Part shown: piece after piece, positions 38,517 through 42,542 of the stretch
How positions within the stretch are numbered: position 1 is the first letter of the stretch
How the letters are laid out: each line of letters starts with the position of its first letter
Assembly: GCA_963799845.1 (NCBI GenBank)
Contig: CAWCYI010000006.1
Coordinates: forward strand, 1,152,001-1,216,000
Source: an uncultured Nitrososphaerota archaeon
Lineage (GTDB): Archaea; Thermoproteota; Nitrososphaeria; Nitrososphaerales; CADDZS01
DNA length: 64,000 nucleotides
Reading direction: 5' to 3'
Program-made: the position numbers and the translations under genes
Notes under the pieces: generated by a model
What the model saw: only the letters and a program-made list of their open reading frames with translations
Database searches by the model: none
What the model was told of the DNA's origin: nothing

Positions 38517-38858
38517 ATGAGTTACGGAAGCGGAAACAGAAACAGATACGGCGGAGGAAGTTATGGCGGTAGCCGAGATCAATTCGGCGGATCTTCAATG
38601 GGTCAAGGCCCTAAACCTGTAGAAGCAGGTAAGGAATACGAAGTAGAAGTAACCGAACTTTCAAGGCGAGGCGACGGAGTCGCGAAGATTCAAGGTTTCG
38701 TCATCTTCGTAAAGGGAGCTAAGATTGGGGACAAAGTAAAGATCAAAGTTGAAACGGTGGGGCCACGGTTTGCAACAGCGACGGCGTTACAACCCGCTGG
38801 GAAGACTGAGCCTTCAACTACTGGTTCAAGTTCGTCGGTAACCGAACCCGTTCAATAG
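38517..38858 (+). CDS. Single TRAM-domain RNA-binding protein
   Basis: Gly/Arg-rich N-terminus followed by PVEAGKEYEVEV.ELSRRGDGVAKIQGFVIFV. Confidence 0.92.
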   Translation: MSYGSGNRNRYGGGSYGGSRDQFGGSSMGQGPKPVEAGKEYEVEVTELSRRGDGVAKIQGFVIFVKGAKIGDKVKIKVETVGPRFATATALQPAGKTEPSTTGSSSSVTEPVQ

Positions 38859-39809: not shown

Positions 39810-40385
39810 GTGATGTCAGCTCTCCTTCCGCAGACAAAGGCGCTAATCAGTATAGAGAATGTCGTTGCATCTGCAAGCGTAGATCAAAGAATTGATCTCA
39901 ACGAAATTACTCGTTCCTTTGCAGATGTCGAGTACCACCCGGATCAATTTCCAGGCCTGGTGTTCAGATTAAAGTTTCCAAAAACAGCCACTCTGATTTT
40001 CAGCTCAGGCAAGATGGTCTGCACTGGCGCTAAATCCTCTGAACAGTCTGTAAAGGCTGTGAAGGCTGTCGTTCAAAAGTTGCGGAAAGGCGGCATTCAG
40101 ATCAAAAATGATGCGACCGTCGTCATCCAGAATATCGTCGCTTCAGCTTCTCTTGGTGGCAAGGTTCACCTTGAAGATGCGGCCAGACAACTTCCAAAAT
40201 CGATGTACGAACCCGAGCAGTTCCCGGGTTTGATCCACCGTATGGCGGAACCGAAAACTGTGATCCTGCTATTTGCTTCCGGGAAACTCGTGTGCACCGG
40301 TGCAAAGACCGAGGCCGACGTTTACAACGCCGTGAATAACCTTCACATGACTCTGGAACAGAAAGGGCTCATCAGTTACGCTTGA
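39810..40385 (+). CDS. tbp: TATA-box binding protein
   Basis: Two repeats of NVVAS...EY.P(D/E)QFPGL...LIF.SGK.VCTGAK; Nitrososphaerota-like sequence. Confidence 0.97.
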   Translation: MMSALLPQTKALISIENVVASASVDQRIDLNEITRSFADVEYHPDQFPGLVFRLKFPKTATLIFSSGKMVCTGAKSSEQSVKAVKAVVQKLRKGGIQIKNDATVVIQNIVASASLGGKVHLEDAARQLPKSMYEPEQFPGLIHRMAEPKTVILLFASGKLVCTGAKTEADVYNAVNNLHMTLEQKGLISYA

Positions 40386-40733
40386 ATGAACGCACCTCTT
40401 GCGTAAGTTGCCTCTCCCTTACTTTCAGAGTTTCAAGCTATTCGCTATTTCCGAAATGTCCTCAGGGAGAATTCTGAATACCCAACTTCAATTGTTTTTG
40501 AAGCTGGCGAAATAATCTTCAGTATTCTGTACCAAATACCTGAGATGTGATCTCATCTAACATCTGAGCAACAAATCGTAGATTAAGATCCGGGCGTTTG
40601 ACCCGCGGAGAATCGAAATATCACATTTTTGATGGCCCTTCCTACTTATCACTCAACGAAGGGAGCGTCAGGCGGGATCATGAGCCCTCGGAGTACAATC
40701 TACTCACGTTTCAACTTCTAACAATAACGCAAT

Positions 40734-40760
40734 TAAGTTTTGTAAGTTTGTAAGTTTGTA
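40734..40760. repeat. Short tandem repeat (TAAGTTTG)x3
   Basis: taagttttg taagtttg taagtttg ta in an intergenic region. Confidence 0.6.
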
Positions 40761-40946
40761 GGGCTTTCGCGATCGTCTCGCTACGAAGATAAAGAACATT
40801 GGATACAAAGGATTCCTAGGAAATCTTTTTCATTCATTTTTCATTTTAGTAAGATTCTTGAGAATCAAAGATATTTCTTTTTGCTAATGCCAAGTCTTCA
40901 TTGATTTAAGAAATAAGAGAATGCAGGATCCCCTGAAGCTTGTTGT

Positions 40947-40985
40947 AAAAAGGTGGGACAGGCAAGTCAACCGCCTTACTTGCCC
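40947..40985 (-). terminator. Hairpin plus T-tract terminating the 46-aa peptide gene
   Basis: Minus strand reads GGCAAGT-loop-ACTTGCC then TTTTT, about 30-70 nt after the stop at 41015. Confidence 0.55.
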
Positions 40986-41014
40986 TAATTGCAGATTGAT
41001 AGGCGCTCTTTGAC

Positions 41015-41155
41015 CTAACCAGAGCCGCCGCCGCCTATGACATCCAACAGAGGATGTTTTGCGGTTTCTAGATGTCCGAAGTGCGCCGCAACGGCGATTG
41101 CGGAAACTATGGAGAGTGCGATTAGTCCTTGTTTGATTCTTTCGTCGATGGACAT
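41015..41155 (-). CDS. 46-aa secreted-type peptide precursor (candidate signalling peptide); not in ORF track
   Basis: MSIDERIKQGLIALSIVSAIAVAAHFGHLETAKHPLLDVIGGGGSG: charged n-region, 14-aa hydrophobic h-region ending AVAA and Gly-rich C-terminus; TATA-like elements upstream and a terminator downstream. Confidence 0.7.
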   Translation of the reverse strand: MSIDERIKQGLIALSIVSAIAVAAHFGHLETAKHPLLDVIGGGGSG

Positions 41156-41202
41156 GAGCCAGTTGGTTTGGCACCTTTTAGAAATATGTTTCGGTTTTAG
41201 CG

Positions 41203-41232
41203 GAAAAAGTGTTTATATTCAGTGATATATAG
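41203..41232. promoter_or_regulatory. Overlapping divergent archaeal promoters (BRE/TATA-like)
   Basis: Plus strand GAAAAAGTG-TTTATATT; minus strand CTATATAT and ATATAAAC; lies between the peptide gene and the regulator. Confidence 0.45.
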
Positions 41233-41414
41233 CATTACTATCTTTTAAAAGAGCCAGATTAGACCTTGAATGAGAAAGTTTTGGCTGCGCTCTTCGGACT
41301 CAAAGGGCAGAAATAATAGCTGGAAACGTGACCAAACCAGAAGAACCTGTGTCGCTCCGCTTCACTTATCATAAATACGGCAAACGAGTGTAGAACTGGG
41401 TTGGGAGACCATAA

Positions 41415-42542
41415 TTGAGAATTCCAGCCGATGATGTTTCCGAGTTTCTTACAAGACTCTCCCCCTTCGTGGACGACGATGGCGCGCGTAATCTTAACAA
41501 GATCTCGGAGGAACTCTCGATACCTTATCAGACTCTGAGATTTAGGATGCAGCGCCTAAAAGACCAAGGTATTACTATAACTGCATTGGTAGATCCGGAG
41601 AAATTTGGACTTTCAAGGTTCAGAGTCAGTCTAGACGTTTCGTCCGACCTTACCGATGTCATTTCTTTCTTCGGAAGCCTTCATCAGAATGCTGGTCTGC
41701 ATTACTTTGCGCGTTCCCTATCCTCTCACTCGTTTGATTGCGAATTCATGATACCGGGGCGCAAGGTGGGAGAGCTATCGAAGCTTCTGAAGTCACTCGA
41801 GGAGATGAAACTTGTCGAAAATTTCAATTTGCGCAAGATCGTCTGGAAGGAGATAATTGGGATGAAGACCAAGTATTACGATTACGTAAACGGCGTATGG
41901 GACATTGACTTTTCTCGCCTGTCGGGCAATCCATCAGACTTCAAGGCTCACCCGACGACAGATTCCTCGTCACTCTCTTCGATTAAGAACAAGTTCGACA
42001 GCATTGATTTGCAGATAATCAAAACGTTGCAGTTGGATCCGTGGACAAAATCCGTTGACATTGCTAGAAGACTGAATCTGACCGACAGCGATATTTCATA
42101 CCACATGAGAAACCACGTCTTTGGATCGAAGATGATTCGTGGCTTCAAGTTTACGTGGATAGGCAGCAAAGATGCGCGGGCGAAACACACAGTTCTTCTA
42201 ATTACTTATGACTTCAGATCATTATCGGAGGACCTCGCCAGGCATGCGATGTCTATATTCACTGCATGCCCTTTTACCTGGAATCACGTGTTGATCGAAA
42301 ATGGCGAGTACATGGCAGAGTTGATGATCCCCGTTTCGCAGATGCCAGATACATTGCAATATATTGCGAACAGACTGAGACCGCTCAAGCTCAAACCCGA
42401 CGAGATGGGATATGTTGATTGGTCCTGCTCGCTGAACTATACAATCCCTTACTTTATGTACGATGTCGAGGCTGGCTGGCAGTTTGACAGTGAAAGAAGC
42501 CTAGGCCACATCATCCAGATGATAAAGAAAGAACAGACGTAG
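41415..42542 (+). CDS. Tandem (duplicated) Lrp/AsnC-like winged-HTH transcriptional regulator
   Basis: HTH1 RNLNKISEELSIPYQTLRFRMQRL...VDPEKFGL; HTH2 FDSIDLQIIKTLQLDP....DIARRLNLTDSDISYH; each is followed by an alpha/beta effector-like domain. Confidence 0.8.
   Translation: MRIPADDVSEFLTRLSPFVDDDGARNLNKISEELSIPYQTLRFRMQRLKDQGITITALVDPEKFGLSRFRVSLDVSSDLTDVISFFGSLHQNAGLHYFARSLSSHSFDCEFMIPGRKVGELSKLLKSLEEMKLVENFNLRKIVWKEIIGMKTKYYDYVNGVWDIDFSRLSGNPSDFKAHPTTDSSSLSSIKNKFDSIDLQIIKTLQLDPWTKSVDIARRLNLTDSDISYHMRNHVFGSKMIRGFKFTWIGSKDARAKHTVLLITYDFRSLSEDLARHAMSIFTACPFTWNHVLIENGEYMAELMIPVSQMPDTLQYIANRLRPLKLKPDEMGYVDWSCSLNYTIPYFMYDVEAGWQFDSERSLGHIIQMIKKEQT

Follow-up and report, generated by a model that had tools for sequence, protein, structure and literature searches.

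A conserved gene pair in Nitrososphaerales archaea: a predicted membrane micro-protein and a tandem Lrp/AsnC-like regulator

The window analyzed here is a stretch of 64,000 nucleotides from the genome of an uncultured Nitrososphaerota archaeon (G000:C6:1152001-1216000; assembly of 4.6 Mb in 9 contigs, 86.7% complete, 4.9% contamination). It contains a gene for a very small protein (the micro-protein), encoded by a micro-open reading frame (micro-ORF), which lies divergent to (head-to-head with) the gene of a tandem Lrp/AsnC-like protein (the regulator), 259 bp away. The two genes, and the two modules of the regulator with their helix-turn-helix (HTH) and RAM-like domains, are as follows:

41015-41155, minus strand: micro-protein gene, 46 aa plus stop, ATG start; N-terminal motif, single hydrophobic helix, C-terminal G-G motif and a few variable residues
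41415-42542, plus strand: regulator gene, 375-aa tandem ("single-chain dimer") Lrp/AsnC-like protein, TTG start
41415-41855, plus strand: regulator module 1, residues 1-147, with HTH helices at 8-22, 27-34 and 38-50 and a RAM-like alpha/beta domain at 53-147, from an AlphaFold2 (AF2) model
41997-42542, plus strand: regulator module 2, residues 195-375, with an AsnC-type HTH at 196-235, a RAM-like domain at 241-341 and a C-terminal helix

Both genes had been proposed in an earlier, sequence-only reading of this DNA. The 46-residue minus-strand frame that it described is present in the ORF listing at 41015-41155 with an identical sequence, and its head-to-head neighbor, a 375-residue Lrp-like regulator of two modules, is borne out by the ORF listing, by Pfam, by the AF2 model and by a profile search of the PDB. 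The size of a 46-aa frame is by itself uninformative, because 95 ORFs of at least 30 aa occur within 8 kb around the locus. The reality of the micro-ORF rests on conservation: a paralog in the same genome, 142 profile matches, adjacency to the regulator and a low ratio of nonsynonymous to synonymous differences (pN/pS). By this comparative evidence, the micro-ORF and the regulator are both real genes, and they co-occur.

The paralog, a second copy of the micro-ORF, is located at G000:C6:1692025-1692153 (60% identity, E 3.8e-12). In other genomes, tblastn identifies the micro-peptide at 55-74% identity adjoining regulator orthologs in loci L009-L011 and L013-L019, and weaker relatives in other families (L020, L022, L023, L024, L026 and L034). 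Except in L034, the matches in the fetched loci start at profile position 1, and this position is an ATG. Five database proteins of 45-46 aa match the micro-protein; they carry either no name or the label "hypothetical", and one belongs to a metagenome-assembled genome (MAG) of a "Thaumarchaeota archaeon". No family in Pfam or NCBIfam matches it, and the protein atlas search gave no usable match. Another 9 database proteins, of 85-168 aa, were considered as fused or longer forms and rejected: the 4 of these that were inspected look like over-called starts, since the micro-protein stands at their C-terminal end behind an in-frame extension that is not conserved.

The linkage of the two genes was assessed with a 17-sequence micro-ORF profile (A1) in 301 genomes sampled from the order, 87 of which contain the 142 matches. 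The regulator search returned 245 matches in 96 of the same 301 genomes, and the pair counts use the 150 of these 245 that were listed. On this basis, 100 of the 142 micro-ORFs lie within 600 bp of a regulator. Among these 100 adjacent pairs, 89 are convergent, with a gap of 20-386 bp (median 61), and 11 are divergent, with a gap of 168-397 bp (median 316); all 11 divergent pairs belong to the family of the window. One of the 11, as well as one genome in each tally for that family, is supplied by an unpublished genome (G001). Twenty of the remaining 42 micro-ORF matches were also fetched, and 17 of them have a convergent regulator homolog next door. In total, a regulator homolog adjoins 117 of the 121 micro-ORFs examined; the other 21 matches include several that are weak or at contig ends. 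The divergent pairing noted in the sequence-only reading thus holds for the window's family and gives way elsewhere to convergent order. Its prediction of a conserved micro-ORF near regulator homologs, with a hydrophobic N-terminal part and a tail of the form P-L-[DE]-x-I-G-G, is confirmed.

Named public records give a similar picture. In 71 of 80 regulator loci, recovered with a narrower alignment of regulators from family f9 (A4), the micro-ORF lies ~10-40 bp past the regulator stop; these records overlap with the 301 sampled genomes and are, therefore, not an independent sample. The loci come from MAGs labeled Nitrososphaerales, Thaumarchaeota or Nitrososphaerota archaeon, including Candidatus Gagatemarchaeum stordalenia. 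A 4-nt overlap of the two stop codons is seen at 10 of the 40 convergent loci L040-L079:

4-nt stop-codon overlap: L044, L045, L046, L047, L054, L059, L064, L071, L078, L079

Such pairs must have transcripts with overlapping 3' ends, and antisense interference between them could follow. The neighbors other than the regulator differ between loci, and in the loci compared neither exporters nor proteases are consistently encoded next to the pair. Many genomes have 2-5 micro-ORF matches and, among the regulator matches listed, as many as 6 regulators, and the tails of the micro-proteins differ between copies.

The locus of the paralog in the window's own genome (L039, G000:C6:1690525-1693653) has a different organization. 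The micro-ORF is found at L039:1486-1629 on the minus strand with its promoter block kept, and the regulator is absent. A DDE transposase gene flanks it on one side, and genes with bPH_3/zinc-ribbon and FMN_bind_2 domains lie on the other. The latter two genes are located directly downstream of the regulator in the congeners L009 and L010, so that L039 looks like the ancestral location from which the regulator was lost or moved.

The distribution of the two genes among families of the order, as numbers of genomes with a match, is as follows:

f1, the window's own family: micro-ORF in 11/12, regulator in 12/12
f9, the family holding Candidatus Gagatemarchaeum: micro-ORF in 68/74, regulator in 69/74
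f14: micro-ORF in 2/15, regulator in 6/15
f12: micro-ORF in 0/74, regulator in 0/74
f15: micro-ORF in 1/73 (a lone weak match, E 0.007, inside a 360-aa frame), regulator in 0/73

These tallies show co-distribution and carry no statistical test, because related genomes are not independent. A phylum-wide sample of 250 other genomes contains no match at E 1e-6. The lineages in which both genes occur are Nitrososphaerales that do not oxidise ammonia, among them the family of Candidatus Gagatemarchaeum; in the accessible text of PMC10640624, the Gagatemarchaeaceae are described as the former Group I.1c and as non-ammonia-oxidising. Families f12 and f15, we infer, are ammonia oxidisers. The amoA model PF12942 has no match in the window's genome, but it has none in any control genome either.

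The micro-protein gene appears to possess its own promoter. The candidate control elements at the locus are:

41175-41201, minus strand: promoter block of the micro-protein gene, conserved in the window's family (ortholog alignment A5)
41181-41192, minus strand: promoter core GAAAnnnnTTTC, an A/T-rich near-palindrome at -37 to -26 from the ATG
41366-41377, plus strand: candidate TATA box of the regulator gene, 38-49 nt before the TTG, in a partly conserved A/T-rich block (A5)
40947-40951, minus strand: run of five T, 64-68 nt past the micro-ORF stop, a possible archaeal termination signal

The window, L009, L010, L011 and L013 all carry the core motif, at -36 to -40, and L039 has a near match to it. 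The block at 41175-41201 is probably the transcription factor B recognition element and TATA box (BRE/TATA) of a leaderless or near-leaderless mRNA, and it may serve as an operator besides. A similar spacing is seen in the named loci of other families, in which a TATA-like heptamer starts 30-33 nt before the micro-ORF ATG in 47 of 68 distinct upstream regions, a position that would fit a leaderless or near-leaderless mRNA there as well. Upstream of this heptamer, at a distance of 47-50 nt, a box TT[GA]GA[AT][AT] occurs in 37 of the 68 sequences (shuffle maximum 2), and for the regulator, 15 of 64 sequences have this box 15-16 nt ahead of the TATA (shuffle maximum 1; both counts from L080-L159). 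This suggests a cis element common to both genes outside the window's family, and hence a candidate operator.

The overlap of the two promoters at 41203-41232, as claimed in the sequence-only reading, is unsupported, because the candidate TATA box of the regulator is ~175 bp from the conserved micro-ORF element at 41175-41201; the segment 41203-41232 is conserved in part, and within the genus only (A5). Oligo-T runs act as termination signals in archaea, and the T-tract proposed downstream of the micro-ORF is present at 40947-40951. The hairpin proposed to accompany it is unsupported, as the downstream RNA folds no more stably than shuffled sequence (z 0.67; 155 of 200 shuffles equal or surpass it). 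A scan with promoter and terminator patterns gave no match, its promoter pattern being bacterial and unsuited to an archaeon. Taken together, the genome comparisons establish the pair as a two-gene module whose adjacency is kept through a change of orientation, and in which the micro-protein gene has a conserved promoter of its own.

The anatomy of the micro-protein was derived from 92 distinct sequences, which are 38-47 aa long (mode 40). The positions of lowest entropy are M1, D4, K6, R8, G10 and A13, followed by the tail P-L-[DE]-x-I-G-G, notably its L-G-G. The N-terminal motif reads D-E-K-I-R-x-G. It leads into a hydrophobic stretch of ~18-22 residues, along which small residues form a stripe (G10 in 85/92, A13 in 85/92, A17 in 76/92); small residues also occupy the would-be -3 and -1 positions at its end (V in 69/92 and A in 69/92; columns 21 and 23). 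Two Lys/Arg residues are present among the first 9 residues in 89 of the 92 sequences, and none or one in the last 18. The first 9 residues have a net charge of 0, with conserved Asp and Glu, in 78 of 92. The most variable positions (>2.8 bits) are the residue after G-G and the final two or three. An H-F-G-H motif in the micro-protein of the window is confined to the window's family.

The coding sequence is under purifying selection. The median raw pN/pS of the micro-protein is 0.32, compared to 0.40 for the regulator (45 pairs within the window's family, with synonymous sites near saturation); between L009 and L010, the micro-ORF has a pN of 0.079 and a pS of 0.73. Across 306 pairs of the 40-aa form, pN/pS rises along the chain from 0.18 (residues 1-10) and 0.25 (residues 11-26) to 0.46 (residues 27-35) and 0.76 (residues 36-40), such that the tail after G-G is nearly neutral and has no sign of diversifying selection. 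Constraint is thus highest on the N-terminal 10 residues and the helix, a pattern more in keeping with a single-pass micro-protein that stays in the membrane than with a signal peptide that is cut off and lost. With a conserved micro-ORF beside regulators and purifying selection on it, two of the three outcomes that the sequence-only reading had named as arguments against itself are ruled out.

Several known kinds of short sequence were compared with the micro-protein and set aside. A class III (prepilin-type) signal peptide has a charged residue at -2 and Gly or Ala at -1, directly before the hydrophobic stretch. The residue before G10 is mostly Tyr, Leu or Ile, and a domain of pilin size is lacking. 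The absence of a beta-grasp fold and the presence of a membrane helix speak against a ubiquitin-like or Pup-like G-G tail. In GlyGly-CTERM and PGF-CTERM sorting signals the helix follows the motif, unlike in the micro-protein. As for a precursor of a ribosomally synthesized and post-translationally modified peptide (RiPP), no modifying enzyme is conserved near the pair.

The regulator can be placed by domain matches and by fold. Residues 195-232 match HTH_24 (PF13412; 33.9 bits, cut-off 21.9) and HTH_AsnC-type (PF13404; 29.8 bits, cut-off 27), and a weak HTH_20 match at residues 21-53 (22 bits) is below its cut-off. No match to the ligand domain PF01037 is listed at E up to 0.1, and, as a result, the RAM assignment is one of fold and not of the Pfam domain model. 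The AF2 model (pLDDT, the predicted local distance difference test, 89.9; pTM, the predicted template modeling score, 0.88) contains an HTH plus a beta-alpha-beta-beta-alpha-beta unit twice, joined through a disordered linker (residues 181-189). A 56-sequence profile of the regulator searched against the PDB matches ST1022 over residues 191-287 (E 4.6e-6) and PH0140, PH0061 and FL11 over residues ~10-147 (E 5.5e-5 to 2.9e-4); the single-sequence search matches FL11/PH1519 to residues 1-70 (E 0.0018). NCBIfam LysM matches residues 195-247 at E 0.0012, far below the model cut-off.

The best whole-chain match found by Foldseek is NirDL (4ch7 and 4czc; E 5.5e-10, template modeling (TM) scores of 0.52/0.61, 9-11% identity). 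Single Lrp/AsnC regulators rank next, each covering one half of the chain with a probability of 1.0 and a TM score to the target of 0.56-0.64. Public names of the regulator homologs are "hypothetical protein", "DNA-binding Lrp family transcriptional regulator" and "winged helix-turn-helix". By its HTH matches and predicted fold, the regulator belongs with the Lrp/AsnC family, and DNA binding and ligand binding are putative functions. Like FL11 (PH1519), ST1022 (Grp), PH0140, E. coli Lrp and AsnC, each half is composed of an AsnC-type HTH followed by a RAM-like domain. It differs from them in the fusion of two modules within 375 aa, in two invariant histidines (H230 and H234), in the lack of a listed PF01037 match and in the dedicated micro-protein gene.

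Residues W162, D195, D198, H230, H234, P286, F287 and W355 are invariant in 56 regulators paired with a micro-ORF. None of the 24 regulators examined that lack a micro-ORF has lost any of them, even at identities as low as 21-25%. H258 and T343 vary in distant orphans, a difference that is confounded by relatedness. The second HTH bears H230 and H234 on its third helix. That these two histidines are invariant, along with several Trp and Asp, is unusual for a plain DNA-reading helix and hints at a cofactor, ligand or catalytic site.

At one locus (L169, G242:C3:339800-343200), the regulator beside the micro-ORF is broken into two frames, 313 and 177 aa long, and an intact second regulator is present on the other side. 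The split is probably due to a frameshift or an assembly error.

We tentatively favor, at somewhat less than even confidence, a reading in which the micro-protein is retained in the membrane as an N-in, single-pass protein that binds or tethers the Lrp-like protein. Retention with the N-terminus inside is favored because the N-terminus and the helix are the most constrained regions, the helix has a small-residue face and the Lys/Arg residues are on its N-terminal side. The D-E-K-I-R-x-G N-terminus is then predicted to be cytoplasmic and the P-L-[DE]-x-I-G-G tail to be outside. Contact with the Lrp-like protein would tether, sequester or modulate the regulator, and a state of the membrane or envelope could be passed on to transcription via this contact. 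The regulator, in turn, might act on the promoters of both genes of the pair. The survival of a mostly convergent pair, without a shared control region, suggests that the coupling is at the level of the products.

Folding of the two proteins as a pair gives weak support for binding, with a median score of 0.48 (runs 0.23, 0.48 and 0.62) compared to 0.00 for the best of 3 controls. The mark used for such predictions is reached by 58 of 80 solved complexes and by 2 of 110 mismatched pairs; scores of 0.60 or lower account for 7 of those 80 complexes and for both mismatches that pass. The runs, which used our own alignments, agree in at least 68% of contacts, with a partner pLDDT of at least 44. 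Comparable arrangements are the anti-sigma factor with its sigma factor and Prli42 with the stressosome, in which a miniature membrane protein is likewise the partner of a regulator, as proposed here. In Prli42/stressosome, MgrB/PhoQ and RsiW/SigW, the proposed likeness is that of a very short single-pass protein whose cytoplasmic end contacts a regulator. Prli42, MgrB and RsiW differ in having no sequence or fold relation to the micro-protein, and the partner here is Lrp-like.

A number of observations count against a tethering micro-protein. The pair fold returned no interface along with its weak score. The topology and membrane retention are deduced from residue counts by the positive-inside rule. 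The ~8 residues that face the cytoplasm would provide a small surface for a specific contact, and the small residues at -3 and -1 at the helix end would allow cleavage by signal peptidase too. On the side of the regulator, no pairing-specific surface could be identified, since the invariant residues are equally kept in all 24 orphan regulators. The linkage is also imperfect in both directions: among the 121 micro-ORFs examined, those of L039, L160, L167 and L173 are without a regulator (3 of the 4 being among the 20 additional matches fetched), 50 of the 150 listed regulators have no micro-ORF beside them, and 9 of the 80 named public loci lack one.

A simpler relationship would be that of a regulator and its target, in which the Lrp-like protein is a local transcription factor sensing a small ligand, an amino acid for instance, and the micro-protein is a membrane effector under its control that might modulate stress, transport or the envelope, the two never touching. 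Lrp/AsnC regulators commonly control neighboring genes, and this habit, together with the conserved element at the micro-ORF promoter, the TT[GA]GA[AT][AT] box common to both promoters, the regulators that occur without a micro-ORF and the independence of the family-wide invariant residues from pairing, is what such a relationship would predict. However, with 89 of 100 pairs convergent there is usually no shared regulatory region, and yet the adjacency survives the switch to divergent order; the pair-fold score of 0.48 against 0.00 for controls adds weak support for contact. We consider regulation without contact unlikely. The sequence-only reading had instead likened the pair to the Rgg/short hydrophobic peptide (SHP) systems of Firmicutes. 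In this scheme, the hydrophobic N-terminal part would serve export and be cut off, and the tail of 15-22 residues carrying P-L-[DE]-x-I-G-G would accumulate outside and be re-imported via Opp/Dpp to bind the RAM-like domains, which we judge to be unlikely. Rgg/SHP and the other RRNPP systems also have the gene of a cytoplasmic regulator beside that of a tiny hydrophobic peptide, with several distinct pairs per genome. The tight linkage of would-be peptide and receptor genes, the multiple copies with differing tails (which resemble sets of cognate pairs) and the A-x-A-like site that closes the hydrophobic stretch are in keeping with this, and the tail, with an acidic residue, hydrophobic residues and G-G, resembles mature SHPs. 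Of the 301 genomes, 278 encode Opp/Dpp binding proteins (PF00496), the window's genome at least 6 of them, and their presence does not discriminate, because families without the module have them as well; multiple oligopeptide ATP-binding cassette (ABC) transporters are also reported for Gagatemarchaeaceae in the accessible text of PMC10640624. The conserved adjacent micro-ORF and its purifying selection stand from that earlier proposal, but the pattern of constraint, the N-terminus without net charge and the gene order do not follow it. The part to be discarded would be the most constrained (pN/pS 0.18 and 0.25) and the residues after G-G nearly neutral (0.76); the first 9 residues, with their conserved Asp and Glu, have no net charge in 78 of 92 sequences; and the long hydrophobic stretch with its small-residue stripe is more like a membrane helix than the h-region of a signal peptide. 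The usual gene order is convergent instead of divergent, and neither an exporter nor a protease gene is conserved nearby. Pfam finds no tetratricopeptide repeat (TPR) family in the receptor and the model is alpha/beta and Lrp-like; this lack of a TPR domain, which that proposal had anticipated, also counts against a mechanism of the Rgg/SHP kind. Without a TPR receptor, the pair is not a member of RRNPP, though it could still work like one. Further differences from Rgg/SHP are the archaeal host, a peptide of 38-47 aa with a constrained N-terminus and helix, and mostly convergent genes.

The NirDL match raises the question of whether the tandem protein is a transcription factor at all. It could be an enzyme or carrier on the scaffold of the siroheme decarboxylases NirDL/AhbAB, acting with or on the micro-protein; NirDL/AhbAB (4ch7 and 4czc) have the same four-domain tandem Lrp-like architecture and are the best whole-chain fold match, and His, Trp and Asp are invariant even among paralogs of only 21-25% identity. 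Canonical two-domain PF17805 proteins are present in 11 of 41 relatives but in none of the 12 genomes from the window's family or the 2 from the Gagatemarchaeum family, which also favors an enzyme. But the regulator has no PF17805 match, its identity to NirDL is 9-11%, and its sequence profile leaves NirDL/AhbAB unmatched up to E 10 while it does match true Lrp/AsnC regulators. In addition, as many as 6 copies per genome occur among the matches listed, and genomes G025 and G030 hold both kinds of protein. We regard an enzyme as very unlikely. PF17805 (AsnC_trans_reg2) has no match in the window's genome at E up to 0.01, where the same model matched 3 control genomes. Least probable, to a degree that we would call highly improbable, is a relation like that of toxin and antitoxin, in which a small membrane-active toxin is neutralized or repressed by its HTH neighbor, or controlled via overlapping convergent transcripts. 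The small hydrophobic single-helix protein, the multiple micro-ORF copies per genome, the DDE transposase beside the orphan paralog L039 and, at 10 of 40 loci, convergent genes whose 3' ends overlap, as in type I systems of Bacillus, would agree with it. The pair is, however, near-universal within two families (11/12 and 68/74) and not patchy or mobile, its sequence is strongly conserved across an order, and its tail is acidic, not basic.

Canonical fused AhbAB/NirDL-type proteins, with two PF17805 domains in frames of 342-370 aa, were observed in families without the module (G015, G019, G023, G026, G032, G034, G037 and G040). Within the window's family, 5 loci share a further protein next to the module, ~110 aa long and matching no Pfam family:

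~110-aa protein: L009:2510-2863, L011:241-567, L012:3144-3512, L013:2654-3037, L014:2666-2992

It is found neither in the window (tblastn, E up to 0.01) nor in the loci of other families. The module's neighbor in the window is:

39810-40385: gene of the TATA-binding protein (TBP)

The presence of this gene confirms that the window is archaeal. A TRAM-domain protein with a Gly/Ser-rich N-terminus is encoded at 38517-38858. The ~630 bp between the TBP gene and the micro-ORF (40386-41014) contain no ORF of note and a short tandem repeat, GTAAGTTT, near 40741-40760. An Rfam scan of 40300-41500 gave no match at E up to 1.

We regard the pair as a known kind of system, in which a regulator is accompanied by its own small peptide or membrane protein, assembled here in archaea from unrelated parts. 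Searches of the accessible literature on Lrp/AsnC proteins of Thaumarchaeota/Nitrososphaerota, on microproteins or small ORFs, on archaeal quorum sensing and on RRNPP systems yielded no description of it, and a term search of the accessible text of PMC10640624 found no mention of Lrp, AsnC or quorum. The archaeal signals named in the accessible text of PMC12240190 are a carboxylated acyl-homoserine lactone (AHL) of Methanosaeta and a proteinase-K-resistant small molecule of Haloferax. That the pair is the first peptide-based cell-cell signaling system of Archaea, with a ribosomally made pre-peptide that is exported and trimmed to a short hydrophobic product ending near P-L-[DE]-x-I-G-G, an intracellular receptor derived from an Lrp/AsnC amino-acid sensor and several orthogonal pairs as separate channels, strikes us as rather improbable.

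The pair ties an unannotated micro-protein, which belongs to no family, to a distinctive single-chain regulator of the Lrp type, and illustrates how conserved adjacency can bring to light ORFs too short for annotation cut-offs. The module is found in most of the searched genomes of abundant, uncultured archaea of acid soil and peat (Group I.1c/Gagatemarchaeaceae and relatives). Release and sensing of the tail, should they occur, would make it the first peptide pheromone known from archaea. Binding of the two proteins, which we tentatively favor, would constitute a minimal archaeal route from the state of the membrane or the extracellular environment to transcription, and a new job for the Lrp/RAM fold.

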